Assembly (NCBI RefSeq): GCF_037042905.1
Contig: NC_087251.1
Coordinates: forward strand, 43,960,001-44,024,000
DNA: 64,000 nt
Direction of reading: 5' to 3'
DNA from: Lytechinus pictus
Taxonomy: Eukaryota
Shown: positions 1 to 50,267 of the stretch, in pieces
How positions within the stretch are numbered: position 1 is the stretch's first letter
Layout: each line of letters begins with the position of its first letter
Notes under the pieces: model-generated
Told to the model about the DNA's origin: nothing
The model's input: the letters and a program-made list of their open reading frames with translations, nothing else
Database searches by the model: none
Program-made: the position numbers and the translations under genes

Positions 1-243
1 CTCACTCTCTGAACGTACCGTACGTGCATATCGGGCTAGCCCAGGCGCCCAGCCTCGGCGGCCTAACCGTAGTGTCCAGTGCATGCCGCGCTGTGGTCGG
101 TCGTGCGTATGTAAGAATCGTTTACGGAGGCGGCCGCCACATCCGAGGGATCCGTACGACGAGAAGAAAGGGAATAAGATGGACATATAAAGTGCGGTCT
201 GACTCTTTTGTTTTCAATATTCGCTGTACAATAATCAACCAAG
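1..243 (+). promoter_or_regulatory. CpG-rich promoter/5'UTR region of LCLAT1
   Basis: Locally high GC and CpG content just upstream of the ATG, against an AT-rich background. Confidence 0.5.
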
Positions 244-414
244 ATGAATTACCTAAAATTGAAGGGTTTCGGGGCACTATTTCTTTCCTTTTCATCGGCG
301 TTTGTGGGTTCCGTTTTACTGATGGGCCCGGTGCTACCGCTCATGATCCTCGCCCCCCAGGTTTACCGGCGACTAACGGACCTAATCATTGGAATGTGGC
401 TCGCTTTGCCCATG
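244..414 (+). CDS. LCLAT1: LCLAT1-like acyltransferase, coding exon 1 (MNYLK...WLALPM, 57 codons, phase 0)
   Basis: ATG at 244. The hydrophobic N-terminus resembles that of LCLAT1 (..YRRLTDLIIGMWLALP). Strong donor ATG|GTAAGT at 415. CpG-rich upstream sequence. Confidence 0.9.
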
Positions 415-614
415 GTAAGTTATTCGGGTGAAAGTGCAATGATTGAAGTGTTGGATTTGAAATCAAACTGACATTTATTTTGATTATAATGACTCAAGTT
501 TAACATTATGTTTGCTAAAACTTCTAAAAGGAATAACAGTGTCTACCACTTGAACTTTGATTATCATAATAATATGAACTAGATTTTAATTCGTCATCAT
601 CGTCATGCAGACGA

Positions 615-2167
615 ATTAGGTGGTCTGTCGTAGAAAGATAAATATTGATTAACAGACATAATTATTTAAACAAATGGCATGAATGGGTAGATATTAGATT
701 GAAAGATAAATAGACAGTCAGATAGACATACATATTTAAACAGATACACATAAGAAAGATAGATAAATAGATGGATGGAGAGATAAATGATAAGTGGATA
801 GATGAATAATTAAAAGAAAGGTTGATAAATTATATCTTGATATATAGATAGACAGATAGATAGATAATGATTATGATTGATGACAAAAATTACGATGATG
901 ATGAGGATGATGATAATGTGGCGGTCCTCCGTCTTGGAACGGGTCCTGGATGCTGTAGCCAGGCGGCTTCTTGAGAGTAAAAATTATTTACTAACGTATG
1001 CTTACTCTCAATGAAGCCAGGGAGTCCTTCCTATTCATCTGCGTGTACCGCAAAAAACCCTGAAACTTTCGCCCCCGAGATTTCTACTTCTAAAACATCT
1101 AGCCATAAATCAAGTACATGGGATAAAAACTTAATTTCCGACATTTCTACGCTCTCGGTTTTATTTTTAAACAAGAATTCATTTTAAAAAATGAGAAAAA
1201 TATTGTGAAAAGACGGTTCAAGAGACTTGCCCGATGTTTACGCCGCCATCTTGTTTCCTATTGTACTTCCCCAACGTTACGCGATGCACGCGTCCTTGAA
1301 AATTTACCAATATTCAAGGAGTTAGAGCAAAATTTGCATAAATTTGATGACGTCATTTTTGACAAAATGAAATTTTCAGTTTAGGCGCGATTTTGATGAC
1401 GTCATGATCAAATTGAGGGACAATGGTGACATGTAATAAAATCTACAACTCATACTCTATCGATATGAAAAAAAAATTGGGGGTCAACGGACTATTTAAA
1501 GAGCTAAGTACAGTGAATTTTTAATAGGCATGTTTTGCCCATATAGAGCCTAAGGGAAGAGCTCGCGCGCACGCGTGCTGCAAACTTTGATGGGTGCTCA
1601 TTCCCTCATTAATGATCATAGAGAGCTGATCGAGGTATCAATTTGATCAGAATTATATCAATAACAAAACAGATACGCATAGAAAAAAGAGCAAATTTAT
1701 GCTGCGTAAGACCGTTACGCACGAAAACGCGCACATATGTGCGCACGCGCAAAATGTTGAAATGCTTAAAATGACCTGAAATGTACCCCAAAATTTGTAT
1801 AGGCCATTATGAGAATTTTTTAGCTTTGACACGCGCGTCATGACCTTTACATGACCTTTGATGACATTGACAGACGACCTTTGACCTTAAGTTTATTTGA
1901 TGTAAATATATGATTGATTATCCGTTATGTTGATATGATCAAATTAAGAATTTTACAAAATGGCGCGTAGATGATGTCATCATGACCAGATGACCTTGAA
2001 AAGCTTAGTATGCCGTCTCTATGATAGACTCTAAATATGACAGAAAAATCAGCCAAATTGATTCAGCCAATTTGGAGAAAAGTTGGCGACAAACATAGTT
2101 GCCAAGAATAAATAAAGAAAATTCTGACGAAATTAAGAGGTGATCTGTCATAGACAGACCACCTAAT
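615..2167. mobile_element. Non-autonomous Helentron/HINE (Pearl-like) or foldback element
   Basis: 15-bp inverted repeat ATTAGGTGGTCTGTC (615-629) / GACAGACCACCTAAT (2153-2167). Terminal hairpin AGGTGATCTGTC-ata-GACAGACCACCT. Degenerate (GATA)n at ~685-865 and TGACCTTTGACC-type motifs at ~1840-1890. Confidence 0.45.
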
Positions 2168-2979
2168 GAAACTGAAAGCAAAATTGAATTTCACGATAAA
2201 TAGCCGCCTGTCAGCCATTATATATTATTAGTCTACAATTTTAGATCTAGACTGCAAAAATAATTGTTCTCATCACTGCACACCATTGCACTTATATTCT
2301 TGTCAGCTTCCTTCATGCTGCAACAAGTTTAGGAGGCAGTGGGGCATGATGAATTTCACTTGAGATTAATCATGATCAGATGATTGTCTTTTTAATTTCA
2401 CAAACAATTAAGTTGATAATGTTCCTTATATTTTTAAGAGAAAGTGTGCCAAAAATCTCATAAAAGTTTGAGAGAAATACTGTACATGTACCGTATATGA
2501 TTTTCTTGTAAAGAACCTTTGCCAGTCATTTTCAGATTGAACAAAAAGATTGTGCTCCATGCATGTCTGAGCTGCGCACCCATTCTTTTTACACACAATT
2601 TGGGAATTTTGATGAGAAAGGCTGCATATTGAGGTGAAATGCCCAAAATTCATCATTTTTCCACCATTTTGAGTCAGATTTTTTAACGAATATCTTTCTT
2701 TGTAAGGTTTCAAAATTCAAAAAATGGTTATCCATTTCATTAAGTGATTGCAAGTTATTCTAGGAGTTTGAAAGTAGAAATATTATTCAGAAACATTTTC
2801 AATATTTCAGATTTAAATTCTAAGCTTTTTTTCTATGCCTTTGAATAGATACATGTAAGTTTAAATCATACATGTTTACGTGTAGTTAATATAAATCTGA
2901 AAGTTGTCGTGTGAGCCATACGTACCTCAGTTTTTAGCTGTACACGAAAATTGCTTGACTCGCTCGAATATAAGTCTGA

Positions 2980-3338
2980 TTTCATAAACCCAATTATGCG
3001 GCTAATAGCAGCATAATTTGGTCGTAAAATCGGAGGAGGACCAGAGTTATCCGCATTATTTTGATGCTGCAATTATCCGCATAATAGATTTTGACTTTAT
3101 GAACGCATTTTCAAATAATGCGGATAATTGCCATGGTGCAGTCACAAGGTCACCCTTTTCCAACACAACCGCATCGGAGGGGGCGTGTGCAGTTGTCATG
3201 ACGATTATCCGCCTTTTTCAGGACGGGCGCTCGTAAAAATAGTGCGGATTATTTTCGGAGTTTGTGAACGCAATTTTTATTGAATTATCCGCATTACTCT
3301 TAGGCGGCTAATTAGAGGATGGGTTTATGAAAGGGGTA
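2980..3338 (+). mobile_element. MITE family A, copy 1 (one TIR truncated), PIF/Harbinger-like
   Basis: Near-identical inverted copy of 11002-11399 and 20118-20517. TIR TACCCCTTTCATAAACCCA. Confidence 0.85.
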
Positions 3339-5384
3339 TGAAAGTCTTGTGAACCATACATGTACATGTTTTGTGTAAGAAGTAGTGTCTCCATGTTATA
3401 TTCTTAGTTGTACATGAAGATCGCTTGACTCGCTCAAAATTATTGCCTGGTGTACATGTACATGGAGCTTTTCAGTTTCACTTAATTAATTTCAGTGAGA
3501 GTGATGTACATGTACCGGTACTCTAAGTCGAATTGTGTGAGTCATTGCATACCGGTACATGTAGGATTTATGAGATGCTCATTCAGATGATTCAGAGATG
3601 ATATCATCATACCTGTATTGCCTTTAAATACTGCATCGATTGATTATTGAATTAAGCTCTTTGCTGCTTTAAATGAGATTAATGTTCTGACTCTTGGAAA
3701 TGCATTCCTATACGTAGTAAATGTACAGTGTAGGTAAATGGTTAACTCTTACTATGCCAGGCCCAATACCCCTCTAGTGCCAGGGATATTCGAGGGAATC
3801 CTAAATTGACCGAAACGTAAGCAGAGACTGATTTTAAAACGGTCATAACTCTTTACCCGTACGTTGTATAATGAAACCTTCTTCACATGAAATGATGCAT
3901 GGTTCATGGTCTTTATGATCATGTTATGACCTTTCATATTTGAAATCGGAAAAATTGAGAAAAGATGAAATATTTTACATCGTTTTTTTTCAATAAGTAA
4001 AACCTGAAAAAATATGATTTCATTAACATTTCAAAGAGTAAATAACCTGAGTAATTGTAGAGATACCAAAAAATTAAGAAGATAAAATGAAAGTTCAATG
4101 TTTACCCTTTCAAATGACGTATCTATTGATGAAATTGAACAAACAGAAATATGAAAAATAATGCTCTTTTTAATGAAATACTATTTTGCTATTCAAGTTA
4201 TTTCCTCTGAAATGTGAGAGGGTTTATACACACGAAATTGAAACCGACCTTTCCATAAAAGGGCATTGTCGTCGATCAAGTGACCAATCACAGCACAGCT
4301 GCGATCCCCACGCAAACACACATAATAATAGATTAGAGACATGTATCTTCACAGTGCAGCCAACCGTACCCTTACATTCGTGTAGTCTTCAAAACAAGAC
4401 CCTGTCATTTTTCAGAATGCGCGGTATTCCGAAACAACCGCTATGGGGGAAACAAAATTATTAGCGCAGTGTAAATTTTATGTCATTTCAATTCTTGTCA
4501 ATATTGTCGTACTGCAAAACATGTTTTAGAAAATCGTAACCTGGATACGATTTGTGGTGTGCGATGCACTCAACTATATACTGTTTTGGATAATGTAGGC
4601 GATTTCTATCCAGTGTCGGCAACAAACATTTGCGACCCACTCAACTGTCGTTCTAAAGCATGAATCAGTGTAAAGTTTGGTCATATTTTGTCAGGGTCGA
4701 TTCGTCGTACATACTATACGGGCTTTCGTACTGTAACAAAGTTATTGCCAGTCAGAAGGAGACAAAATATAGAAAACTAAAGATGATATATTGAAATATA
4801 GATAAAGAGGGATCGGACAGATTCAATACTAACAGGTTTGGGGTGTAAAATCCCACAACATAATATGGGCGTTCTTGGCAAAGTACACAGAACTAAGAAA
4901 AAAATGTTTATTTTTCGTGAATCAAGAAGAAGAAATGCAGATCAGTTACAAACTAAAAATTCAATACAAATTTTCAAAAAGAAAATAGGCCTATTGGTTC
5001 TATATTTCTGGTCTGACCCCCCCCCCCCCACCTCGCCTAAAAAAAATGTGAGGTCAGGTGGAAATGTTTATGTTGACTTTTAGCCCTTTTTGTGGTGACC
5101 AAGGTTGAATACAAAATTAAATGTATTTATTACAAAACATAATTCTAGCATAATATTCATACGTTATCATTATTACGTAACTAACTGATCTCACATCTCT
5201 CTCTCTCTTTCCATCTATCTATCTATACATCTCTCGTAATCTCTGGACTCTCTCTCCTTTCTTTTTCATCTCGTGTTTTTTTTTTTCACTTTTATTTTAC
5301 TTTTATACCTTTGCATAGATTCTGTGCTTTAATGATAAATGATAATTTACAGTGAGCTAATAAATTATAATGAGAGTATCAAAA

Positions 5385-5494
5385 CTACTACTACTACTAA
5401 CTACTACTACTACTACTATTACTACTACTACTACTACTACTTCTATTACTACTACTACTACTACAACCACTACTACTACTACTACTACTTCTAT

Positions 5495-5539
<45 letters not shown>

Positions 5540-5586
5540 CACTACTACTACTACTTCTACTACTACTACTACTACTACTACTACTA

Positions 5587-5652
<66 letters not shown>

Positions 5653-5703
5653 TACTACTACTATTACTACTACTACTACTACTACTACCACACTACAACT
5701 ACT
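5385..5703. repeat. (CTA)n microsatellite
   Basis: Directly visible. Source of the poly-Y/T/V ORFs. Confidence 0.97.
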
Positions 5704-7460
5704 TTTTACAGCAGTACAAAAACTGGGTGTCCTGGTCGGTCAAATGAATCGCTTAAAATATTATTAACGTTGATATTTGTGAACACTCATTTTAAAACTG
5801 TCTAAAAAATGTTAATGTTGAGCCGTTTTGAAGTAAGAGACCCCCCCCCCCCCCCCCCCCGGCTTCCAGGGTAACCAAAATTAAGATAAATATAATGAAC
5901 AATTACGCAATTAGAATTTTGTGATTACAGTCATTATAAGACTGGTATTCTGACAATTTAAAGACTGTAATCTGGGCCAACTATGCATCTCGTACATGCC
6001 AAGGAATGGACAATAGATGCCGGATATTCTTTTTCGTGTGGATAATATAATGCAATATAAATATGAAAATATAATGGCAATTTTAGACAAGAAAAGGGCC
6101 CCATTGCATATTATGTCTTTGAATAATTGATTATTTTCAAACTTTAGGCTTCATTCATTCCGCAAGCGAGCATACATAGCAAGCGGTTTGAAAAAAAGGC
6201 AACTGTCTACGTCGACATGCCAGGAAGCCCAATGGGATCTCTATTTGATATAAAATCGTAGCTGAACAGTGAAAGAACGATAAACAGAACAGGTAAAATT
6301 CACTCTGGATATTTCATGATGGGGGTGAAATATTAATTATATCTGCTTCGGTATTAAAAAGAATAATCTTCGACCAAAGTAACCACCTGTCTGATAGCGA
6401 CTACATTTTTATTGTTCATGCCACCAAGTCATGAACAATAGCTGCCCAGACTCCCTTTCATGAGGAATGTCTAATCCGCACTCCCTCCTGACCTATTATC
6501 GAGGAGAGCAATTTAGCACAGGATGTTCATAGAAATCGGGCCACGCGCGCGTCTTTTGATTTGACAATTTAATACTTTCAAAGGTTCCGATACGAACAAT
6601 AGCTTTTCTCTCCCCAACACCTTCCATTGACTTATTGCCATTAAAGTATATAGTTTTTATTCAAATATTTGTTTCGACTTTAAGACATTTAGCATCGACA
6701 ATATACGTCAAATGTCCTGTAATCTAAATGATGATGATGATGATGATGATAGGGATGATGGTAAAGATGGCATGGATAATGTCGAGAATGATAACAAGAA
6801 ATCACGGGGAAAACAAAACACCTCCACCACCACGACCACCAGCACAAACACTGGCATCGTTACTTCCACTTATCAAAAGCATAAAGAAAAACAAATAGTT
6901 TAAAATAATTAAATTTAATTGTAGCTGAAGCCTATTTTGCATATTTAGAAATAAAGGATAAAGATGAGATTTAAGATTGAAGAAATGTATAGGCTATAGT
7001 CCTTGACAAATCAAAAATACAGGAAATTGAAAGATAAAAGGGGAAACAGAAATAACGAAGCAATGGGGTGTGAAGGTAGAAATTACTAACAATTTGTAGA
7101 AATTTAGATCTTTATATTTTGTTGAACCTTATGATTGTTTATTCAAATAATATGTTTGTAATGGATCATCCGATATCAGAAAAGTAAGATATTGCTTTCG
7201 ACAATATCAGAAATTATATTTTCTACACCTCTTTATTTGTGATATTTATAATTACCCCGTCATTAAAAATATCAATCTAGTAAGGATTAATTTTACTTCC
7301 CCTTCCCTGAAATAAATTATTAAATGGACATTATTTGCTGTTCAAATGATATATAAGTGACACCACTAAATTTCTTTATACCGTGCATTGTCAATATTCA
7401 TGCGGTAGGACTTATGCACAATCATCATACTCGATAAGTTAGTACATATCACATTTCCAA

Positions 7461-8635
7461 TTATCAAATTTGCTTGATATATTATTATTTTTTTCATTTA
7501 GTAGTAATCCAGTTTATGCTTCCAGATTTACCATATGAGCTCAGCGTGTAGGGAAATATACCAATTATCTTTTTGCTGGCAAAAAGGGAGAAACAAAAGA
7601 AAGCGGAACATCGGAAGAAATTATGCATTGATTGATATAAATTATTTCTCGCTAATAAAACAAATGAGGAAGAATAAAAAAAAACGCATTACGGAAAATG
7701 CATGACATTCACAGAATTTTGTAATTAAAAGATCATGAAAAGTGCGTTTACTCGCTTGATTCGCTCACTCCCATTTTCTCTTTTTTTTTTCCTTACACAC
7801 ATCATACTTTTTATTTCGCCCTTGCCACATTGACAACATATATTTTGTTGATGCTCAAAATAATATTTAGGTTTCTTTCTGTAACCGATGCAAATTTGAT
7901 GTTTACTTTTTCCACCAAACTTGGTACGTAATTTGGTGTTGTTATCAAATTTGCTTGATTCATTTTTTCATTTAGTAGTATATGATATCAGATTTGACAT
8001 ATGAGCTCAGCGTGTAGGGGAATTTACCCATCATCTTTTTGCACGCAAAAAGGGAGAAAGAAAAGAAAGCGAATCATCGGAAGAAATTATACATTGATTA
8101 ATATACGTTATTTCTCGCTAATTAAACAAATGAGGAAGAATGGACAAAAAAAAACGCATTGCGGAAAATGCATGACATTCACAGAATTTTGTAAATAAAA
8201 GATCATGAAAAGTGCGTTTACTCGCTTGATTCGCTCACTCCCATTTTCTCCTTTTTTTTTCCTTACACACATCATACTTTTTATTTCGCCCTTGCCACAT
8301 TGACAACATATATTTTGTTGATGATCAAAATAATATTTAGGTTTCTTTCTGTAACCGATGCAAATTTGATGCTTATTTTTTCCACCAAACTTGGTACGTA
8401 ATTTGGTGTTGTTATCAAATTTGCTTGATTCATTTTTTTTCATTTAGTAGTATATGATATCAGATTTGACATAAGAGCTCAGCGTGTAGGGGAATTTACC
8501 CATCATCTTTTTGCTGGCATAAAGGGAGAAACAAAAGAAAGCGGATCATCGGAAGAAATTATACATTGATTAATATACGTTATTTCTCGCTAATAAAACA
8601 AATGAGGAAGAATGGACAAAAAAAAACGCATTGCA
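7461..8635. repeat. ~470-480-bp tandem repeat, ~2.5 copies
   Basis: TTATCAAATTTGCTTGAT recurs at 7461, 7942 and 8412 with near-identical downstream sequence. Confidence 0.9.
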
Positions 8636-8770
8636 AAATATTACTAAACTTTGAAACTCAATAACTTTGTTATTTGTTATCCGATTTTGATGAAATGTTC
8701 GGTATTTTGCTCAGTGAATTCTGCTTTGTATATAAAACTATAAATACATTCAGCCGGGACCATCCCTTTT
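8636..8770. mobile_element. Truncated Kolobok-like MITE family B end
   Basis: Matches the right end of 36070-36639 (…GGACCATCCCTTT). Confidence 0.7.
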
Positions 8771-11001
8771 ATACTAAGAAGAAGGTGAAAGAGAAGAATA
8801 ATGATAATAATAATTATAATAACAATAACAATAATGATAATAATAATTATAATAATAGTAATACTAATAGTGATAATATTAATAACAATAATAAATGAAT
8901 AAATAAATAATGAGTGTGATGATTGCAGTGCGCAGACGAGAGTTGGAAATGACAGGCTTCTTTACTCATATATTTATAACGAGAACAATTTTGTGACAAT
9001 GCTAAAAACAATGTATAAGACCTTTCCCCCGCCCCCCCCCCAAAAAAAAAAAAAATTTAAAAAAAAATCCCGAAACCGTGCACATTTGCAGGCAGAAAAA
9101 AGCCTTGACACAAGAATACTACCATACTGGCCTGCAAAAGACCCGATCGATAGCTCATGAATATTCATGTAACAATAGCGAATGGGCGAGTAGTGTTGGG
9201 TGAGGAACATCGTACCGCTCGGTCATTGGTCAATTCCGAGCTGAATGTCTTTGCACATTCGCCTTTGCTCTGCCCATAGAGGTACGTGTATTGCTACACA
9301 CAACCGTTATATCACACGTGTCAATAGGGGAAATCTTGATTCAGATCGCAGCAATATCCAAAATCAACTCTTGAAAATAATGATGCAAAAATACAATTTT
9401 ACTCAAAAAATGTCTATGTAAACCACTATTTTTCATATGATAAAATGAATTGTGAATTCCTGGTCAGTATAACAACATAAAAAACAGAGAATATGGTGTT
9501 GATTTTCTGGCTGTAAAATTGGTTAAAAAAAAAAAAGTTATCTGGGCACGTATACGTGCCAATGGCATTAGAGGGCTAAGGGCACGCATAGCTGCCAACG
9601 GCATTTAAAGAGTTAATGGTATTAAAAATGGTAGTGATTTTTTACCCGATTCCTAAGAAAGCAAGAATGGACATGTGCACATGTTTGTTTGATTAAAGGG
9701 GGAGTGAACTGTGTGTGGTCTCTCATTGACTGTGTGTTATAAATACATAGTCTTAAAATATACATTTTCAGATATCTACTACATGTAATACTTCAGAGAA
9801 TAAATTGACATATAATTGTATTTTGTTTAGAGAAACTAAAATGTTTTGAGAGGAAAAGTAATTGTTTTTCTACTTGGTATTACATAATTATTGCGGTATA
9901 AATGTATTGAGTAGTTAATTAGCATGTTGTCATTCAAGTGGGTCTATATTACTAGACTACATTAGCATTATGGGTCGGGACACTGGCCAGGTATGAGTAG
10001 TTGAGGACTCGAGATGGCGCTATTGGTTCGTATCTGCTTTAAGAGTGTTTATTATTCATAATCCATTTATTTATGAACCATTCACTTCCCCGAGACTGTT
10101 ACCGTTGCCATTTTGGAATAACTGTTAAAAATCTGAAACTGTGTACCATCTGCCCATCCAGAAAATGAAGGTCTGAAAACAATAGGGGGACCAAGCATTG
10201 TGGTTTCCTATGATCAGCTTAAGTACATGTAGCCTTGTCATTTTTATTTACTGATGGGATAATAGATGACCTTTGAATGAGCAGCGAGCACTGCATCTCT
10301 TCAGGGATGAGTCTGTAGTGTAGACCAATTGAATTCATTTGTTTATTCACCACTCATTGTTAGATCGGCCCTGTAAGGTAGCTATTTTTTTTTTTTTTTT
10401 TTTTTACAAAGGAACCCAATCCAAGGTAAATTATCAAGAAGCATTATTTTGAAAAACATTCATTCATTGTGTCATTGCTCTCATATTAAATTGCCTACAT
10501 GTATGCTTTGATTAATGCATCAAAATACTTAGAAGGAAAAAAACAACAATGAGAAAATATGAATTGTATGCAGATGAAGGTATTGATGTTTGAACAAATA
10601 AATTTGAGAGTATGCTTTAAAAAAATAATTCTTTTGTCAGAGCTCTTTATCTTGTACATGTACCTGTCTGGCTACGTGTACGGAACAGTGCGGAAATAGG
10701 GCATACATGTACATGTACATGTACATGTAGTGGTCAAATTTAGATATCTATCCATGGACAGTAAAATGTATTTTTACATAAAATTACAGTATTAGCACTC
10801 CATAACAAATGTTACCCTAACAAGTACAATTGCAACCCTTCTAATTTGTGCCGTGAAAGGGTCTACAACAAAGACAAGTATTCCATTAAGTCTTATGTAC
10901 ATTATTGAACATATCAACAACCTCTTTGTAAATACTACCTACGCCCCCAGTATGAAAGCAAAACCAGACACAAGCCTACAGTGTAATAAAAAGTAGTTTT
11001 A

Positions 11002-11399
11002 TACCCCGTTCATAAACCCAATAAAACCTCCTCCAATTAGCCGCCTAAGAGTGATGCGGATAATTCAATAAAAATTGCGTTCACAAACTCCGAAAATTAT
11101 CCGCATTATTTTTACGAGCGCCGGTCCTGAAAAAGGCGGATAATCGTCATGACAACTGGACACGCCCCCTCCGATGCGGTTGCGTTGGAAAAGGGTGACT
11201 TTGTGACCGCACCATGGCAATTATCCGCATTATTTGGAAATACGTTCATAAACTCAAAATCTTGTCCCGATGCCGCTATTATGCGGATAATAGCAGCATC
11301 AGAATAATGCGGATAACTCTTGTCCTCTTCTGATTTTACGACCAAATTATGCTGCTATTAGCCGCATAATTGGGTTTTATTGGGTTTATGAAAGGGGTA
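11002..11399 (-). mobile_element. MITE family A, copy 2
   Basis: TIRs TACCCCGTTCATAAACCCAATAAAACC / GGTTTTATTGGGTTTATGAAAGGGGTA. TNA-type flanks (TTA left, TGA right). Confidence 0.88.
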
Positions 11400-13654
11400 T
11401 GAGATTGTTAATGTAAATATCTGTACAAAGAAGTTAGAGAATATTAGGGGATTTTTATTCTTATTAAAGTGAATTGGTTGTGTGTGTGTGGGGGGGGGGA
11501 TGGTGTCTACCAATTTAGCTTTGAAAAATCTAATCAAATTAAAGATAATTAAAGTTGTTGTTTTTTGTGTGTGTGTTTTAGCGATGCAGCAAAAATGCTT
11601 ATTTTGGTCTGCATCAATTGCCTGTACAATATGAGAGCGTATTCCAAAAAGGGCCGAAATCCAACGAATATCACGTAGGCTCCTGTACATACAAATCTTG
11701 CTGTTCAATGTGAGACCATATTCAACTGTAATCAACTGTCAAGGTTGCATACATGTGCGAATGGTTGAAATAAACAATGCGTCCCACAATGAACGTGATG
11801 CGATGCACAGCATGTACTCAATGATGTCATAATTAAAATGAATAGTAATATAATAAATCGCATTTCAACGATCATATTTTTTCTTAATAGGAAATGAGTC
11901 CATATTCATAATTGTGGTACTTGCTCAATCAAAATTTTCCCTCGGGGGGGGGGGGGGGGTATAGATAATAATAATTATATTAGATGGCTGTATTTCATGG
12001 AATACCAGAAATATTCCACTCGTTTAGGGCCAATATTTGTTCAAACTCTTGAAATATTTCTGGTATTCCCTTCTGAGCCGTCCAATATAATGTAATTATT
12101 TCATACATTTTCTTCTGATATTAAACAATAAAAATATTAAAGAATGGTAATGGACTGTATATATGTACAGTACATTTAGAGGGGATGCTTGCTGTGATTG
12201 CTTCACAAATTTATGACCATTTTGTATGGATGTTTGTCAAACTTTCATGTACATCCAATGTTTAGAACTTTCATTTTTCTCCTTTTTTACCAGCCTGATG
12301 TAAGGATAAACTACCTGTTTATGATGTGGGTCAAACAATTTTGAACTTAGTTAAGTACTGTAATATCTGAAGAAAAATATGGAACTTGAATCATGAAATT
12401 TGCAAGAATAGCGCTCGTAAAAATGTGTTTGTACTTTGTAAACCGCTGTTTTTGAATTGCCAGATGAGACTTTGGGTGTGTCCATTCATTGAGGAAGTAC
12501 ATATGTATATGATCAGGAATGATTAGAGTGCAGTGACCCTTAAAAAATTTCACTGATCACAACCAAGATAAGCCAGTTCACCGATAGCTTATGAATATGA
12601 TAAACTTTTCTCAATGACCTTTCCAATTTTTCATTTGGATGACCAATTTATTGCTTATTTTGGTACAAAGTGTTGGTAATTCACTCAAGACTGAGACCAA
12701 TATGTTCCCTATTTATGACAACCCTTTTTCATAGGTACATATTGTTAGTGTACATATAAATAAAAATATTATTTTTTGTCTAAAGTGGAGAAATTATCAG
12801 TAGGCTAATTTAATCGGTACCAGTGTTCTACATTGTAGCTAGGGCCTTTTTAGTGGTGGTCGCAATTCATAGCAATACAATTTTTTTAGGCTGAGTTAGT
12901 GGTCTTAAAGTGGAAAGAAAAGGTACATCACGTACATGTAATGACACCTGACATAAGCAAATCTCTGAAAATAGTCTAATATTCATCAAATATAAGAATG
13001 TTTAGTGTAAATATTACAAATAAAACAAGATTATAGATGGAAATCAATGCAAGTGCAATTTTACTTTGCAAGCTAGGAGCTGTTTGAAACACTTTTCATT
13101 TGAAATTTTAGTAGTGGTCAGAAATAGTGTTTTCAATGATGAGTGGTGGTCAGAAATCTTCTGTGCCAGTTTGGCCGACCACTGTGGCTATATCACTGTC
13201 AGCTACAACTGTAAGAAAAACAAATTAATTTCATGTACACATCACATGTACAGTATGGATAAACTTTAAAATTCTTGCGCAAAGTATATTTTGTATTTTT
13301 GTAATCTGTTCTGCACTCCAACTTATTTGTGTACAAGTATCATGATGTGTGTTCTGCTCTTAATACTGAACCTTACATGTACATGTACCTTAAACTTTTT
13401 TTTTTTACACCAATACATTGTCATTTAAAAAAAAAATATGTGCCTTCACTTCAGCGTGGAAGAGATGAAGGGAAAGTTGGTCGGTTGGTAGGGGGTAGGG
13501 CAAAGAAAGCTTAACAAAAGCTGAATTGTTTAGTGAACAAAGCAACCATTGATTATTTTGCATCAATTCAGTGTTGTATGTATATAAAATTCTTTTTGTT
13601 GATTTTTTTGGCATCTCTCCAAATACATGTAGTATGTGAAATGTACATGTACAG

Positions 13655-13825
13655 GTGGGTGTTTCATAAAGCTGTTCGTAAGTTAAGAGCGACTTTAAGA
13701 ACGACTGGTGATCCTTTCTTGTGGTAAATGGTATATACATTGGCGATGGTTTAGCGCGTAACAAAGGATCACCAGTCATTCTTAAAGTCACTCTTAACTT
13801 ACGAACAGCTTTATGAAACGGCCCC
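13655..13825. mobile_element. Short palindromic MITE (PIF/Harbinger-like, CAG TSD)
   Basis: GTTTCATAAAGCTGTTCGTAAGTTAAGAG… / …CTCTTAACTTACGAACAGCTTTATGAAAC. Related copy at ~35998-36735. Confidence 0.85.
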
Positions 13826-14471
13826 CAGGAGTGTTATTCTAATACACTACTGCAGCCCAACCATTAGTTGGGTCTGATGACTGCTTTCCTGCTTCTATGA
13901 AATAAACTTCCAGAAAGTATTTCTGAATTAATACAAGAAAAGTGCATTTAATAGAGCAATTGTAAAACCTGTTGATACCAAAGACTATACATTTACATGT
14001 TTGCAGATTATTAGGGTAGGTGTAGTTGTGAAATATGATGTACATGTATGCATTGCATGTAATTGTCAATAGTGGATAGAAATTTGTGGTACATTAATTT
14101 GATGATCTGTGAACAATTGCTAGTTGTATTTTGCAAGCATAATCTTTGATTGGTACTCGACCATTGTAACTTGGTTACTTGGTAATAATTTTTTTCAAGA
14201 GCTGTTTTGGTCAGTCCTAATGATCATTTTATTTTGCGATGAACATGTATGCTTGGACTTGTGTGTAGGATACTCTTTTTTTCTTTGAAAGTTTTAAAGG
14301 GAAAAATAAGAAGTTAAGAACACTCAACTATAATAGAATTTATTATTGTTAATATAATAATAATGATAATAATATTATCATTATTATTATTATTTATAAT
14401 TACTAATACTATCATTATTACTATTATTATTATTATCATTATTATTAGTAGTAGTAGGAGTAGTAGGTGTA

Positions 14472-15547
14472 GGTCATGTGTTATGAGGGTGCCTACTTTT
14501 GCATCGCCTTTTTAACTTCAAAAGTTTCTATCTCACTATTACGTATACAACCTATGATACTTAAAGTATATATTTTTTTTAAGGAAATTGTTCAATGAAC
14601 CCAAATATGCACTCAGAAATAGCATTAGGTGTAAGGTGGAAGTGTAATATTGTGTTGAATAGAAAAATATTAATTTTCTAAGATCTCATATGCGATCATG
14701 ATAATTTGTATAATCCCCTATGACCAAAATACTCATATTTCTGTATAGTACAGAGTGAGACCTTTCTATCAATGTATAATTTTATTGGGTTTATGGGAAC
14801 TTATTATACATGTAATAAAAAAATAAGAAATGTATACATGTAGAGGTCTATTGTGTGCTCTATTTTTTCCTGCATTACCATTACATGGTCAATATGTCTA
14901 CTGTGTTTTCTGATTTTATGTATTAGACTACTTCTAAGATTCTCCACTCATGAATGTCTCTGACCTGTGTCATTTGACCTTTAAGATCTGTGACAAAATC
15001 AGGTATCACTGTCATCCTACAGAATAGTAGAAATCACATTGTCTGCTTTTACTAAAAACTATAATTAAATTAAGGATACACTGTAATACATGTAGTATAC
15101 ATACTTGTGTCAATACGGAAGAATTGTTGTGAAAAATGAGAAATTTTGACATTTTTTCTATTTCTTTTGACCTTGTTTTTTTTTTCATTTATGATAAACT
15201 TACTTTTCAATCAATCAGCAGTAAAGAAGAATGTTCTAGCTTTAATGTGATACCAAATTTATAGTTGGAAGTCAAGTTTTCACAAAAATATTAACGTTTT
15301 ACCCAAACTGACACAAAGTATTGAGAATACCCATTGACTTTGTGTTGGACTCAAGTTATATTTATCATAGAGCAATGAGAATTTAGATTATTAGCCAAAG
15401 AATTCAACTTTGAAATGATCAATATCAAACTTATTGGCATTGTTTCTTTCGTTCTGAAAATATTAAAGGAATAACTTGATAAATTAAGCAAAATACTGTA
15501 TGTAACAGCAGCGCCCTTTTTGATGGGCGACCTCTTGACACATGGCC
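14472..15547. mobile_element. ~1.1-kb degenerate DNA transposon inserted in an (ATT)n tract
   Basis: Imperfect TIR GGTCATGTGTTATGAGGGTGCC / GGCGACCTCTTGACACATGGCC, with ATT/TAG microsatellite on both sides. Confidence 0.55.
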
Positions 15548-15758
15548 ATTATTATTATTATTATTATCATCATCATCATATCATTATTATTAAAAAAATC
15601 TTGTTGCATTTCCTCTGAACATTGTCATGCAATATACTTCATAAAAGTCAGGATTTATTTACATTTTGTGGTTACATTTAATATTAATTTGTTCCCCCAT
15701 TTCTCCACTTTTCTTCCATGCCCTTTATTTGCTGACTCTGAATGATCAATCAATCCAG

Positions 15759-15768
15759 TCTTTGATGG
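15759..15768 (+). CDS. LCLAT1: LCLAT1 10-nt micro-exon (TCTTTGATGG = S-L-M + first base of E)
   Basis: ccag|TCTTTGATGG|gtaagt with a CTGAC branch-like motif at 15732-15736. Converts phase 0 (exon 1) to phase 1 (exon 3) and gives LPM-SLME-TLFG, colinear with vertebrate LPV-ALLE-TMFG as recalled. Confidence 0.85.
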
Positions 15769-16480
15769 GTAAGTTATTTTATAGTTGTACTGGTAAAAGC
15801 ATTTGATTTTTATTCGTATTATAGTCTAGACTCTAGAATGTAGAATTCTTGTCATGGATTTTTGATATAATTTCAGAAAATATTCATTACAACAGCAACC
15901 TGTATTCTGTTTTTCTTAGGATGCAAATTGATTTTAATGCTATATATGTCAGTACCAATTATTAAACATTTTTTTCTTTTATGAAAATAATTAATGTGGA
16001 TCAATGTTGATGTAATGATAATGATAATACAAACCATCAGTTTTGAGGAGTAGGTTATTTGTAGGCCTACGTCTGATATTAATGGACAATATTTGGCAGT
16101 CTTTTCAAATGTCTTGTCATCTGAATTAACACCTCATATCTGATTATTTATGTATTTATTCTAATGTCTCAAATAAACACTTGAATTTAATTTTAAAAAG
16201 CTTAAATTTTGCTCCCTCCCCCAAAGTACGTCCTTTCATCGTTGAACATTTTTATAGGGTGGACTTGACCTTTAATAATTTGAATGTTAAGAATCTCTAG
16301 AATTTTATAATGAATAAATTTCATATTTATCTATTTATTACAAATATACTGTAGTATAAGCATTTCATGCCGATGAATGTATGTTGAACGTGCATGATGT
16401 GCATTAATCTTTTCATTGTATATTCTTTATCTCTGCCATGTATTTTTATTCCATTTCCTATTGTGTGTTTTTGTTAACAG

Positions 16481-16669
16481 AGACCCTTTTCGGAACGCAA
16501 TTCAAAGCCATTGGTGACAAGCTGAAGCCGAACGAAAGAACTTTGTTCATCATGAACCATCGGACGAGGCTGGACTGGCTGTTCTTCATCGCTTGCTTGT
16601 TGAGACACACCCAGCCATCCAACCTTAAAATCATTCTTAAGAATCAGCTCAAATCATCTCCTTGTCTTG
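16481..16669 (+). CDS. LCLAT1: LCLAT1 coding exon 3, contains catalytic motif I NHRTRLD
   Basis: ttaacag| acceptor and G|GTAGGT donor. ETLFG...IMNHRTRLDWLF...LKNQLKSSPCLG contains the PlsC/AGPAT HX4D motif. Confidence 0.93.
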
Positions 16670-17492
16670 GTAGGTTCAACGACCGATCTTTTAAGAAGGA
16701 GAGGGAATTGTCATTGTTAGGTTGACATTGTAAAGGAAGTTCTTTCCTTTTTGAAAAAAAATAGAAAATCACTGATTTGTGTATTTCTGTATAGTGTGTC
16801 TATTTTGCATTTGTTCAAAAGTAAACCAGATATGTTTGAATAAACTTGCACATCATGGAAACCTCAATCGATTCAATGATGATTGTTTTGAATGACCCTA
16901 CCTTCATGGAATCAGCGTCAAATTCTGATCTAGAAATCTAATTTTGATGGGAAATGGTTGGAAGCAATCCTAGAGTGTTTTCCTTACGCTGCAATGCTTA
17001 TTTGGAACAGCAAAGTTTAATTAAAATGATTCAGACTTGTTTGACTTTATATTCCTTTCACATATGCTTTTGATGGTGTAGCTAACACTGGACACAACAT
17101 GTGGGAGCACAATATAATTAAATGAATGGGATTTTTCCAGTAATTTTTCTGATCTTCATTTGCTCATTACTAGAGCTGTAATTATAAATTTTCCTGAAAA
17201 AAACAATTTGGCAGATCTATATAATTTATTTATAAATTTTATAATTCTGTGTTACAATGTTTTTTTTCAATTCTGCCGTTTTATTTTTTTTTGTTATTAC
17301 CAGTACTTACCAGAGTTTATCTTTGATTCTGTCAGTCAGCATGCTTTGATTAGAGATACATGAATGCTTCAAATAAATTGAACACTAAAAAATGTGACTG
17401 ATGATTTCATTTTTTTTTAACAGTAGAACGTACATGTACAGTGAATGGTTTGATACAATATAAATTTGAATTGTGAATGTTCCGTTGTACAG

Positions 17493-17624
17493 GTTGGGCT
17501 ATGCAGGTAGCATGCTTTATCTTCTTAGCTCGTCAGTGGGCCAAGGATTGTGTGTGGTTGACTTCTGTGCTCAAGTACTTCTCAGAGATGCGTTATGACT
17601 TTCAGCTCCTTCTCTTCCCAGAAG
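17493..17624 (+). CDS. LCLAT1: LCLAT1 coding exon 4 (GWAMQVACFIFLARQW...QLLLFPE)
   Basis: gtacag| acceptor and G|GTAACT donor, phase 1-1. Carries AGPAT motif II (FIFLAR) and the start of motif III (FPEG). Confidence 0.93.
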
Positions 17625-17654
17625 GTAACTAGTGATCCTACTGTTATTTATCCT

Positions 17655-18690
17655 CTTCTGTCTCATTCTCCTCCCCACCCCTCACTATCCCATCCCACTC
17701 TGACTTCTCCTCTCACTCTACCTCACCTCCACCTCCCTTCTGCTCCCCCCTCCCTCCCTCCTTTCTCCCCCCCCCCCTTACTCTTTCTCCTACCTCATTC
17801 CTCCCCTCCTATTTTTTCTACCCCCTTCATCATTCCTCCCCTCCTTTGTACTCTCCTTCCCTTCGATCATTTCTTTTCTTCCTCCCCTCTTCACTTCTCC
17901 TCTCCTTTGCCCCCCTCCTTTGCCCCCTCCTTCCTCCACTTCTTTCTCACTTCCTTCCCCTCTCTTCTTTTACCCCTCCCCTCCCTCTTTCCACTCTCCA
18001 CTTCTACCCCTCCCCTCCTTCATCATCCCCTCATCCCCCCTTCCCCGCCCCTCCACTTCATTCTACTCTTCATTCATCCCCTCCTTGTCCTTTCTCATTC
18101 ACCCCCTTTTACCCCTCCCCTCCCTCATTCCCCCTTCCTCCTCTCACCCATTTTCTACCACTCCCCACCCTTATTTTTCCCCTCCTTCCTTATCTCTTCA
18201 TCCCTCTCCTCCACTTCATTCTACTCCTCCTCTTCATTCATCCCCTCCTTGTCCCTTCTCATTTACTCCCTTCTACCCCTCCCTCCTCTCCTCATTCCCC
18301 CTTCCCCTTGCCTCCACTTCCTTCTTCTCCCACCCCTTTCATACTTCCCCTCCTTCCTTCTCTCATCCATTCCCTTCTCCCCCATTCTTCCCTTCCTTCC
18401 TCCTCTCACCCATTCACCTCTTCTTCTTCTGCCCACCCTTATTCCTCCCCTCATTTGTCTTCCTCTTCTACCCCTTCCTCTTTCCTCCCCACTCTTTAAT
18501 CCTTCCCCTCCCTCCTTCTTCCCCTCCCTCCTTCTTCCCCTTCTTCCTCCCACTCTTCTCACCCTCACTTCTTTCCCTCCTCCTTCCTCCACTTCTTCTC
18601 CTCCTCCCCTTCGTTCCTCCCCTCTTTTTCCCCTCTCCACTCCCTTTTTAACACTCCTTCCCTCCTTCCTCCTTGCATCTACTCCTCTGA
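17655..18690. repeat. ~1-kb polypyrimidine (C/T) low-complexity tract in intron 4
   Basis: Almost exclusively C/T on the + strand, with internal duplicated blocks. Source of the spurious P/L/S/F ORFs. Confidence 0.95.
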
Positions 18691-19419
18691 CCCACCATTA
18701 TGTGTGACCACTTGTAGGTCATGTATTAATAGGTCAACTTTTTTTGTGATTTCTGATAATCTAGGAATCTTGATTGTTCAAACGATTCAATTGTTTACCC
18801 TGGTAAACAATCAAATAGCAAAAAGGTCCCAGGCCTGCTATCAAATCAACCCATTCCAGCTCCTCTCCTTATCATCCTCGTCTTAATTAGAGTTCTAAAT
18901 AAAGTACCATTTCATTTTGGTGGCAGTAATTTTTTAGTTTACCCCAATTGCTATTAAGAATAAGTTTGAATGCTCTTAAAGAAACGACTAGAGGACTTAC
19001 TTCTCAACATCCTCTCCCATGCACCTGGTAATAGTGTACTAGTGCATGACTTGGTATCAAACCTGGGTCATCAGATTACAAGACCACGGATCCACGAACT
19101 CTGCCATCATTTCTTCTTTCATATTATTTAATTCACTGTGAAAATATAATTGATAATGAAAAATAATTTAAATTGAAGTTCTCCTTGAAGAAGGTCATGA
19201 CATACACATGTGCTTGTGATATACGCGTGCCGGTGAGCTGAAATCTTGCAAAGTCTTTGGATGAGGAGCAAAGTGGACTTTGACTGTCCTTCTCTCTTTC
19301 TTGTGTTTGTTCTTATGATCAATTTCAGATTTGATATGCTACTGAAGTGCCTAGTACACATAGGTAGCAATGAAATGTAATCAGTTATTCAACTTTGAAA
19401 ACTGATGAGATATGTCTAT

Positions 19420-19895: not shown

Positions 19896-20117
19896 TATGA
19901 ATCATTTTTCCGTCGATTCTCCAGGGTACTTGTAAATGAAATCAAGTTGATAAGATGCTATTATACATTGTGGTTAATAGTGTGAGAGAGATTGACAGGT
20001 AGTAGGGGGGGGGGGCAGGAACAGAATATTACTCAGTAGGCCCTTCAAACATTCTGCCGAAGGTTTATATTCAAAATTTGTAAATTCTGAAATTTGCGCC
20101 ATTCAAAGACATACTAA

Positions 20118-20517
20118 TACCCCTTTCATAAACCCAATAAAACCTATCCTCCAATTAGCCGCCTAAGAGTAATGCGGATAATTCAATAAAAATTGCGTTC
20201 ACAAACTCCGAAAATTATCCGCATTATTTTTACGAGCGCCCGTCCTGAAAAAGGCGGATAATCGTCATGACAACTGGACACGCCCCCTCCGATGCGGTTG
20301 TGTTGGAAAAGGGTGACCTTGTGACCGCACCATGGCAATTATCCGCATTATTTGGAAATATGTTCATAAACTCAAAATCTTGTCCCGATGCCGCTATTAT
20401 GTGGATAATAGCAGCATCAGAATAATGCGGATAACTCTTGTCCTCCTCTGATTTTACGACCAAATTATGCTGCTATTAGCCGTATAATTGGTTTTTATTG
20501 GGTTTATGAAAGGGGTA
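20118..20517 (-). mobile_element. MITE family A, copy 3
   Basis: Same TIRs as 11002-11399. TAA/TTA flanks. Confidence 0.88.
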
Positions 20518-20644
20518 TTATACTTCTCATTTTGTGTACCAACCACTTTTCTTCATACATGTACTATGTCAGTGGCGTAATGAGCAAAACATTTTGATGG
20601 GACCAGACTTGGCATATTTTTAGATAGGGTCAAAATTTGTATTA

Positions 20645-28566: not shown

Positions 28567-28698
28567 GAATCAACTTTTGTCGGACTGGACAGGAGATCAG
28601 CAATGCGTATGCCCAGAAACATGACCTACCACGTTATAAATATGTACTCCACCCTCACACTACTGGGTTTTCTTTTACTGTGGACTACCTAAGACAGA
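28567..28698 (+). CDS. LCLAT1: LCLAT1 coding exon 5 (GINFCRTGQEISNAYAQK...YVLHPHTTGFSFTVDYLRQ)
   Basis: Polypyrimidine tract plus tttag| acceptor, A|GTGAGT donor, phase 1-1. Matches the LCLAT1 YVLHPxTTGF segment. Confidence 0.92.
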
Positions 28699-29286: not shown

Positions 29287-29780
29287 CCAAGATGATCGAT
29301 ACCGTGTACGACGTGACAGTGGCTTACTGCGACACCGTCCCTGAGAAAGGTGAGATCGATATCTTCAGAGGCAACGTCCCCAAGGAGATGCAGTTCTTGA
29401 TCCACAAGTACCCCGTCAGCGCTCTCCCGCAGAACAAGGAAGACCTTGACAACTGGTGCGTCGAGAAGTGGAAGGAGAAGGAGCATCGTCTGGAGAAGTT
29501 CTACACCGGCAACAAGACCTTCGAGGGGCAGGAGGATGGAAAACTGGAGAACCTGTCGAGCCAGTCTGTCTGGAAAGTCTACTTCATTATTGCATGCTGG
29601 GTGTACGGTCTGTTGTTCTCTGCTTACCTTATGCTCACATCCTCCTTCGTGCTCTGGGGATCCGTCGTCATCATGACAGCGTACGTGGTCATTGGAAAGT
29701 ACTTTGGTGGAGTCGACAACATCTCGATTGCAAGTTTCAACTTCACGCAAGATCTGACGCATAAAGCGAGGACCACTTGA
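29287..29780 (+). CDS. LCLAT1: LCLAT1 terminal coding exon (acyltransferase C-terminal domain plus two hydrophobic segments)
   Basis: ttttcag| acceptor. IDTVYDVTVAY...WCVEKWKEKEHRLEKFY motif, TGA at 29778-29780. Exon lengths sum to 1128 nt = 375 aa + stop. Confidence 0.93.
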
Positions 29781-38734: not shown

Positions 38735-39503
38735 TGTAACGAACTATGTTTCCGATTTAATGTCATAGAGATGTTATACGGTCTGTAAACGTAGACTATA
38801 TGGAAATCGTATGTGTAGACGTTCTATGATTTAACGAGAATTAGCCAAAATCGCACATTTTATAAACATGTTGGAGTTGTCATGAAACCTTTTGATTAAT
38901 TTATTATTAGCAAAGTTGCCTAAGCATTATCCAGTTGTTTTATTCGAGAAAGCTGGTTGATTAGCAAAGTTAATTAGGTTATTGTAGTTGTTGAAGTCAT
39001 CTTTAGTAACTGTTTTATCGAAGTGTTAAAAAATGCATAAATACGAGGAGCCAACTGCTTTTAAGGACGATCTGTGTTACGGCCCTTTACCGTAGTGCAA
39101 ATGCTGCCCTTCATCTCTTGTATCTCATTTTGCTCTGTACAATGATATATCTTTGAGAAATTAAAGGTAAAGATCAAGCATTGAACCTACACTCTGGACT
39201 ACGTTCTTTTGAGTGTTATAAAGGATCAAATGATTGGTGTACGGAACGAATGCTGGTGATTGAATAGTCGACGGATGTCCGATTGACTGAAATGAGACGA
39301 GAGAGGTGATCGATTGCAATCGACGGATTATCTGACTGGAGAAACCAGAGACGACGGTTGGTGATGGTTGTTAATCAGTCTTTTCCATAAACCATCAGCA
39401 ACGGTCATATACTTTGACCAAACGAACGCAACTGACGGTCAGGCACGGTGGCATCCTGACAAGAAAACCGTGTCAGCTGAAAGTTGGATTAGAGGCCGTC
39501 ACA
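38735..39503 (+). repeat. 5' LTR
   Basis: TGTAACG…CGTCACA. About 5 mismatches to the 3' LTR by eye. TATA-like CATAAATA near 39036. Confidence 0.97.
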
Positions 39504-39505
39504 CG

Positions 39506-39524
39506 TGGTGTCAGAAGTGGGATT
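39506..39524 (+). promoter_or_regulatory. Primer-binding site complementary to a tRNA-Leu 3' end
   Basis: TGGTGTCAGAAGTGGGATT, 2 nt after the LTR, is the complement of AATCCCACTTCTGACACCA, the 3' end of metazoan tRNA-Leu(CAA/CAG) as recalled. Confidence 0.85.
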
Positions 39525-39536
39525 GCTGCTGGTTTG

Positions 39537-39748
39537 ACTGGTTGGTGCAGAACTGGTTGGAGAAGGACTGGTTGGTCAGAACTGGTTGGATAAGAACTGG
39601 TTGGTGCAGAACTGGTTGGAGAAGGACTGGTTGGTGCAGAACTGGTTGGAGAAGGACTGGTTGGTGCAGAACTGGTTGGAGAAGGACTGGTTGGTGCAGA
39701 ACTAGTTGGCGAAGGACTGGTTGGTGCAGAACTGGTTGGCGAAGGACT
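39537..39748. repeat. 30-bp (2x15) tandem array in the retrotransposon leader
   Basis: (ACTGGTTGGTGCAGA-ACTGGTTGGAGAAGG)n. The array resumes at 44463 after the insertion. Confidence 0.93.
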
Positions 39749-39763
39749 CGTCGATGCAGATCG

Positions 39764-44460: not shown

Positions 44461-44560
44461 GAACTGGTTGGCGAAGGACTTGGTTGGAGCAAAAATTGGA
44501 GAAAGATCAATCGGTTTACAACAGTTGACAATCACCATTTTCTGAATTAAGCTGTCGAAC

Positions 44561-49609: not shown

Positions 49610-50267
49610 GATTCAACAGTCACGGAGGTCTAAACCACTGGTCGTACACATTGACAGGCTGAAGCCCTATCAAGGCGTAAGGCTTCCCACTTGGGAATTC
49701 AGACCCGCTGGAGAAGACTTGGTCCCGGAGAATTCAGCGGATGAAGAATCAGGACAAAGTTCGCCAAGTAGTGCCAACAGGCATGACACAACCGACTCCC
49801 CAGCAGACATCCTGCCAGATGTTGATGTGCCTGGAGACCCACCAGACCAGACGCCAGCAGGTGAAGACGCATCTGATAGACCAGAAGATGACACGTTAAC
49901 AACTGACCATGATACTGAAAGTTCCCCAGAAGACGTTATGCCAGATGTTGATGTGCCTGGAGATCCACCAGACAGAAGCCATGCCGCAGATGATACCCTT
50001 GCAGGTGAACCACATGAAGCTTCGGCGGACGACCACACTTTGGAAAGCTCCTCAGGAGACATTCCACCCAATGACGATGTACCTGGAGAGCCACCAGACA
50101 ACAGTCCAGCAGACGCAACAGATGGAGCAACAGCAGGGGGTACAACTAATGAACAATTACCCACTGCTACAGGAGAAACCACACCTGAAAAAGAAACTTC
50201 AGCCAGACGGTATCCCTCCCGTGACAGACGACCTGCTACATACCTGCGGGATTATTTTGTGACATGA
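49368..50267 (+). pseudogene. Integrase C-terminal part (GPY/F domain plus acidic repeats), frameshifted +1 relative to gag-pol
   Basis: RLRNRLERAH…QKSFYDRK…KLQPRWLGPYLV…VVHIDRLKPY, three DVPG(D/E)PPD repeats, terminal RRYPSRDRRPATYLRDY. Confidence 0.9.

Follow-up and report, generated by a model that had tools for sequence, protein, structure and literature searches.

The LCLAT1-like gene and its reading frame

The window, i.e., the whole stretch of 64,000 nucleotides of Lytechinus pictus DNA that was analysed, carries an LCLAT1-like gene (paralogue A) with six coding exons amounting to 1128 nt, which correspond to 375 amino acids and a stop codon. Assignment to the LCLAT1/LYCAT family was based on the Acyltransferase (PF01553) and Acyltransf_C (PF16076) domains, read on the L. 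variegatus orthologue P0008, on the NHRxxxD and FPEG motifs, and on LCLAT1 proteins as the nearest named records; the name lysophospholipid acyltransferase is given by homology only. The last exon was 99% identical to an L. pictus LCLAT1-like record. The coding exons and the intron following the second of them are located as follows:

244..414, plus strand: coding exon 1, 171 nt (57 codons), with a phase-0 donor gtaagt and an RNA joint at 414
15759..15768, plus strand: micro-exon (exon 2), 10 nt, coding for Ser-Leu-Met and the first base of Glu
15769..16480, plus strand: intron after the micro-exon, 712 nt, splitting the Glu codon, with a consensus donor gtaagt
16481..16669, plus strand: exon 3, 189 nt, with the NHRTRLD motif
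17493..17624, plus strand: exon 4, 132 nt
28567..28698, plus strand: exon 5, 132 nt
29287..29780, plus strand: last coding exon, closing the six-exon CDS

Positions 15755-15774 read ccag, TCTTTGATGG and gtaagt. Exon 1 ends in phase 0, the acceptor after the micro-exon opens at 16481 in phase 1, and the 10 nt bridge the two. With the micro-exon included, the product reads ...LPM-SLME-TLFG. Skipping to 16481 leads to a premature TGA at 16523-16525, inside exon 3 and 144 nt upstream of the next junction, i.e., eligible for nonsense-mediated decay (NMD), while an acceptor with the exon start at 16483 would keep the frame and remove SLME. Both the micro-exon as the element that fixes the frame and the TGA had been proposed in a sequence-only reading of this DNA; the former is borne out by sequence phase and by the RNA joints described below, and the latter is confirmed. 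The 16-kb interval holds 36 candidates of the form YAG, 1-60 nt, GTRAG, six of which were frame-restoring and stop-free; homologue-like residues came from 15759-15768 only, and the 35 others were discarded. The 712-nt intron is single copy except for a short repeat near 16245-16290. A transposon origin was rejected for this intron, as its internal repeat covers 30-45 nt only and its ends are unique.

At the protein level, residues 58-61 fall within a predicted helix (residues 38-64) of the L. variegatus orthologue with a pLDDT of 97-98 (mean 96.9). In the middle of this helix, the micro-exon supplies three residues as well as the base that opens a conserved Glu codon. Among 61 full-length homologues that we selected and aligned, all kept the length of the segment and 51 had the Glu. 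Losing four residues would roughly keep the helical phase, and the model alone is therefore no proof that an in-frame skip is harmful.

Public records handle this spot unevenly. The L. pictus record XP_054758207.1 has its first residue within exon 3, S. purpuratus XP_030855063.1 lacks two residues at the micro-exon, Diadema XP_071506274.1 has a foreign N-terminus joined at the micro-exon, and Apostichopus XP_071832771.1 begins just after the Glu. The expectation that automated annotation misses the micro-exon holds for several records but not for L. variegatus XP_041468050.1, in which it is correct.

Elsewhere in the window, an LTR retrotransposon with a gypsy-like domain order occupies positions 44546-50264 of the plus strand; zinc knuckles, protease, RT, RNase H, and integrase are encoded in one open frame of 1687 aa, and the integrase C-terminal domain lies in a second frame that overlaps it. 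A long tandem array at 39365-41071 has open frames on both strands, and a short, very high-copy element at 13650-13830 showed many opposite-strand joints in reads.

Micro-exon inclusion and a probable back-spliced junction in RNA

Two sets of contigs (X1 and X15), which are spliced though neither is on record as RNA, and raw reads from three runs chosen by species label (X19, X20, and X21) were aligned first to positions 200-16900, where 43 weaker joints went unlisted and negatives hold among the listed ones, and then to 16360-16800, where every joint was listed. The 414-to-16480 joint with the micro-exon letters inside was present in a 1526-nt X1 contig (depth 103) and in four raw X19 reads. 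The sequence ahead of 16480 corresponded to exon 1 plus the micro-exon in six X19 reads (agreement 0.92) and in one 4194-nt X15 contig. The exon 1 to micro-exon to exon 3 junctions by which the sequence-only reading had suggested checking its proposal are thus seen in X1, X15, and X19, and the joins it had set against the micro-exon, 414>16483 and 427>16481, were unlisted in either alignment, the micro-exon letters being present. The micro-exon occurred in all four runs with a listed junction form (X1 and X15 contigs; X19 and X20 reads), while X21 had reads below the listing threshold in the 16360-16800 alignment. A synonymous allele of the micro-exon Leu codon was found in X19 and X20. The feature is therefore an internal exon within the 3-30 nt range, with AG/GT ends, present in mRNA and of a length that is not a multiple of three.

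Fewer than 20 informative reads were available, and among them no skip, 427-donor, or second-AG (16483) form was listed, a form being listed only when carried by at least 3 reads. The reads examined amount to about 6% of each raw run, rare forms are lost from contigs, and the three runs, of unspecified tissue and stage, placed 17 reads in total over the start of exon 3. Given the three-read threshold and the fraction read, a skip rate of 10-15% would still be compatible with these data. Depth over 16480-16494 was exactly 8, 7, and 2 in the three runs, and we read this constancy as showing no read starting at 16482-16483. The use of the AG 2 nt downstream, considered in the sequence-only reading, was dropped on these grounds, the second AG and the alternative donor at 427 both being absent among reads over 16360-16800 and the segment length being kept in the 61 chosen homologues. 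The X19 agreement of 0.92 compares with an expected 0.94 with one back-splice read and 0.87 with one skip read, and leaves room for one read of another form.

In X20, three reads ran from the last base of exon 4 (17624) into the start of the micro-exon (15759), a join that the sequence-only reading had not foreseen, and these made up all 3 of 3 listed junction reads of that run. Their ends had a median length of 94 nt and an agreement of 0.99, and the part preceding the micro-exon mapped to 17604-17624, a target with a single match both in the window and in the genome assembly (G000). The junction lies exactly at a canonical donor and a canonical acceptor, with 2 nt shared between the sides; a downstream donor is joined to an upstream acceptor (17624>15759), as in an exonic circle. 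The corresponding circle would be composed of the micro-exon, exon 3, and exon 4, for a total of 331 nt, and the introns flanking it measure 15.3 kb and 10.9 kb. Three copies of a repeat lie within these introns:

2986..3339, minus strand: MITE-like repeat, inverted relative to the 20114-20527 copy, 89% over 379 nt (partner span 20117-20495)
11001..11400, plus strand: second copy of the MITE-like repeat, in the same orientation as the downstream copy, 97%
20114..20527, plus strand: MITE-like repeat of ~400 nt, located in the intron that follows exon 4 and bounded by terminal inverted repeats

The copies at 2986-3339 and 20114-20527 are possible pairing partners across the circle, and the copy at 11001-11400 could compete for pairing. 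As the genome is rich in repeats, we count the inverted pair as weak support for a circle. Directly after the exon-4 donor lies ~1.2 kb of C/T-rich low-complexity sequence (17636-18883).

We consider that the reads joining exon 4 to the micro-exon probably represent a circular RNA. The same reads would arise from a tandem duplication of the region from the micro-exon to exon 4 in that animal, from trans-splicing, or from template switching, an origin to which we give clearly less credit. The junction was seen in one run and three reads; moreover, XP_054759640.1, an older record for L. pictus, is made up of just exons 3-4, which hints at a partial duplicate in another haplotype or assembly. Against such an origin stand the single copy of the micro-exon to exon 4 region in G000, the exact coincidence of the junction with canonical splice sites, where the two sides have no more than 2 nt in common, the rRNA-depleted X20 library, a type that retains circles, and the long flanking introns with their inverted repeat pair.

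Circular RNAs from this gene family are also on record in vertebrates. We take the human LCLAT1 circle to consist of the start-codon exon and the following exon, and so to use a junction other than that of the urchin, which is carried by three reads. A chicken circLCLAT1 (3:7968008|8004191) was validated by divergent PCR (PMC7450580), which also speaks against an artefact here, and a human LCLAT1 circle is listed at 2:30525587-30533314 (PMC7815690); in the parts of these sources consulted, the likeness is that the same host gene family yields back-spliced RNA. Equating the urchin circle with a vertebrate one was rejected, since coordinates were found and shared exon content was not established. 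A coding role for the micro-exon ATG or for the frame of the circle (~136 aa over the junction) was judged incidental, the ATG being discounted because L. variegatus has Leu there. A literature search covering little of the subscription journals and not VastDB returned no paper on this micro-exon or on a sea-urchin LCLAT1 circle.

Distribution and age of the split exon

The L. pictus genome bears three LCLAT1-like copies, two of them split (paralogues A and B) and one intronless. The intronless retrocopy (G000:C5:51157873-51161055; L002:742-1869, minus strand) is intact, encodes 375 aa without CDS introns, is 74% identical to paralogue A, and, with 1128 nt in both genes, retains the 10 nt in register. 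An acceptor-like sequence stands just before its start codon. It has orthologues in S. purpuratus and L. variegatus, and its presence in S. purpuratus implies that the micro-exon-included form predates the split of these genera. Paralogue B (G000:C7, ~23949000-23963100, minus strand) shows the same six-exon map and is 40% identical to paralogue A, as determined via its S. purpuratus orthologue. Its acceptor lies within the same Glu codon, and a single 10-nt candidate at 23960840-23960831 is predicted to read Phe-Phe-Leu-Glu, a position at which S. purpuratus paralogue-B records read Leu-Leu-Leu-Glu. This candidate is U-rich, ends in AG followed by GT, and resembles a recursive splice site.

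A scan of metagenome contigs yielded 61 LCLAT1 loci, many of them near-duplicates (47 distinct sequences), which were classified by eye from acceptor positions. In 46 of the 61 loci the exon is whole, with an AG directly before the 10 nt; in six, belonging to three distinct genes (L015, L041, and L066/67/69/71), it is split, with the AG inside the Glu codon, and in the remaining nine the frame is open through both sites. L047 and L059 were not split. Each split metagenome gene has one upstream 10-nt candidate with a predicted phase-1 split as in the window. The pattern AG, 10 nt, GTRAG, reading x-hydrophobic-hydrophobic-Glu, occurred once upstream in 5/5 split-type genes, and was absent from 96,687 bases upstream of the 46 whole-type loci and from ~110 kb of control window sequence, the residue filter having been set after the candidates were seen.

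L041 (4430-6329) is a compact animal-type LCLAT1 in which exon 1 (phase 0) is followed by 61 nt, the first intron, then by the 10-nt candidate and exon 3, with no introns beyond the neighbour of exon 3; we guess that it belongs to a sponge. The closest protein to the L066-type locus comes from Ciona (74% over 149 aa); besides its main candidate, this locus offers a weaker one at 926-935, and its contig does not contain exon 1. L015 is echinoderm-like and groups weakly with paralogue B (85/83). Among whole-type loci, L016 and L043 are nearest to annelid records (52-62%), and the fish-like L019, which matches pipefish and frog at 94%, carries a whole, unsplit exon on a contig that also includes exon 1. 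The tree built on exon 3 comprises 64 columns and cannot order the phyla.

Lancelet records also bear on the micro-exon. In XP_066281335.1 and XP_078675398.1, exon 1 matched in a shifted frame at 57/57 residues with exactly 10 nt missing (other offsets gave at most 2 matches and shuffles at most 4), and a third record resembles the two as judged by eye. The loss could reflect a skipped or a missed micro-exon, or an alternative acceptor within a whole exon; if it is real skipping, then skipping does happen.

From these comparisons, the micro-exon likely goes back at least to the ancestor shared by echinoderms and chordates, and vertebrates likely lost the intron, the latter on the basis of one fish-like locus and of the human LCLAT1 gene structure. 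The split in L041 would reflect either an older origin or a parallel gain. A recent gain of the intron after the micro-exon, or its repeated gain in parallel at a favourable site, would suit the patchy presence of the split, the whole exon in 46 of the 61 metagenome loci across about seven clades of the exon tree, and the sharing of the split by L041, far as it is from all named records. We hold such a gain to be improbable: the same base position is used in paralogues A and B, L015, and the Ciona-like locus and is implied in lancelets, the intron contains no transposon trace, and the upstream layout described below is common to 4/5 split genes. If its candidate is real, the split in paralogue B suffices on its own to exclude a gain confined to Lytechinus. 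The lineage-specific intron gain put forward in the sequence-only reading accordingly gives way, given the same split in a paralogue of 40% identity and in the Ciona-like and other animal loci, with lancelets implied, to likely inheritance from an old ancestor.

Upstream layout, possible splicing control, and significance

Two elements precede the micro-exon:

15685..15729, plus strand: pyrimidine tract, displaced upstream of a putative branch point
15730..15736, plus strand: branch-point-like TGCTGAC, with the A at -24 and containing UGC; its role is suggested by sequence

Pyrimidines make up 0.82 of the sequence at -55..-28 and 0.53 at -22..-4, which agrees with the earlier description of a tract upstream of TGCTGAC and a pyrimidine-poor AG-proximal part. 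The zone upstream of the micro-exon is free of AG for 105 nt and has TGC at -40 and at -29, the latter overlapping the branch-point-like TGCTGAC. A displaced tract was found at 4/5 micro-exon acceptors versus 1/11 other acceptors (p 0.027), the exception being L041, with its 61-nt intron. UGC occurs between tract and AG in two of the four displaced-tract homologues (the window and L015) and is absent in paralogue B and L066. An 11-nt motif at 15712-15722 is common to the window and L015 (6/300 local shuffles, for one of 10 pairs compared). In 4/5 split genes (window, L015, L066, and paralogue B), the micro-exon lies downstream of a pyrimidine run with CATG at its end, and only the window-L015 pair beat shuffles.

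The sequence-only reading took this layout for an on/off switch of the SRRM3/4 type. Were the micro-exon an SRRM3/4 (eMIC)-dependent or otherwise regulated cassette, paralogue A would be switched through NMD. The weak AG-proximal region, AG-free zone, TGCs, and consensus donor are features of eMIC targets (bioRxiv 10.1101/2021.02.24.432780, as far as its accessible text goes), the stop codon of the skip form is NMD-eligible, lancelet records carry the form lacking 10 nt, and the 11-nt motif shared with L015 contains UGC. NMD would conceal skip products, and the retrocopy and the second paralogue could cover the loss of paralogue A. Nevertheless, the micro-exon was included in all four informative runs, no skip form was listed, and UGC, missing from paralogue B and L066, overlaps the branch-point-like motif in the window. 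By definition, SRRM4 targets show low inclusion when the factor is missing (PMC10250204), and ~81% of human micro-exons are constitutive (PMC4317164). The same layout occurs at a constitutive 4-nt exon of MPC1, which depends on pyrimidine-rich sequence between -67 and -43 together with a donor of 6 nt (PMC9929638), so that a displaced tract alone is no sign of SRRM3/4 control. Of the SRRM3/4 targets, 74-79% have UGC, which is thus common among them without being a strict requirement (bioRxiv 10.1101/2024.09.17.613571), and SRRM3/4 regulation is here unsupported but conceivable. We judge a regulated cassette very unlikely; inclusion is obligatory for the frame, and constitutive use is likely.

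Taken together, a real, RNA-confirmed 10-nt exon keeps paralogue A in frame, and we propose with good confidence that it is likely constitutive and likely old, dating at least from the echinoderm-chordate ancestor, and that in vertebrates it likely fused with the following exon when the intron was lost. The consensus donor and the pyrimidine tract upstream of the branch point would let both ends of the tiny exon be recognised, as for MPC1. The short downstream intron is probably removed first, and the acceptor behind the 15-kb intron would for that reason have to wait. While waiting, it may sometimes be captured by the exon-4 donor, giving the 331-nt circle as a by-product, possibly with the help of the inverted repeats in the two long flanking introns. 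Short microexons whose acceptors are weak have been reported to lose the downstream intron first (PMC10250204), and in plants the intron upstream of constitutive microexons is reported to be removed with a delay (PMC8831610); applying these findings on intron order to the present exon and its back-splice is our own inference by analogy.

The closest known systems, compared through the consulted portions of the respective papers, each share part of this picture. The human MPC1 exon (Koh et al. 2023, PMC9929638) likewise has a length not divisible by three, is needed to keep a housekeeping gene in frame, and is equipped with a far-upstream pyrimidine stretch and a consensus donor. In contrast, the urchin exon has 10 nt, belongs to an invertebrate, lies behind a 15-kb intron, and has an acceptor that appears to be back-spliced; its dependence on the stretch is suggested by layout only, and the urchin-type micro-exon is absent from the one vertebrate-like locus seen. 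Plant micro-exons of at most 15 nt (Yu et al. 2022, PMC8831610) are similarly old, coding, missed by annotation, and merged by intron loss in some lineages, with intronless copies beside split ones and a delayed upstream intron, whereas here the gene is an animal one and whole-type lineages lose the downstream intron only. Neural microexons under SRRM3/4 (eMIC) control resemble it in size, long AG-free zone, weak AG-proximal region, strong donor, and upstream UGC (bioRxiv 10.1101/2024.09.17.613571, 10.1101/2021.02.24.432780, PMC10250204), but in the urchin inclusion is obligatory and found in every informative run, UGC is not kept in homologues, and there is no sign of neural restriction.

A bolder reading would make the micro-exon a splicing control point preserved for over half a billion years (pre-bilaterian if L041 is sponge-grade), at which a conserved upstream element sets the choice among the full-length form, an NMD-bound skip of the kind annotated in lancelets, and an abundant circle, and which vertebrates dropped through one intron loss; we regard it as a long shot. 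As a likely constitutive exon, the 10-nt element is a new, RNA-supported addition to the constitutive frame-shifting micro-exons. LCLAT1 gene models are corrected by it in several model invertebrates. It also provides a natural experiment in which identical coding positions make up an independent 10-nt exon in certain animals but belong to a long exon elsewhere. This contrast between split and whole exons, together with three copies in one genome (two split and one intronless), makes obligatory micro-exon definition without neural factors easy to test, and it bears on why such an intron persists and on whether micro-exon acceptors behind long introns favour back-splicing.
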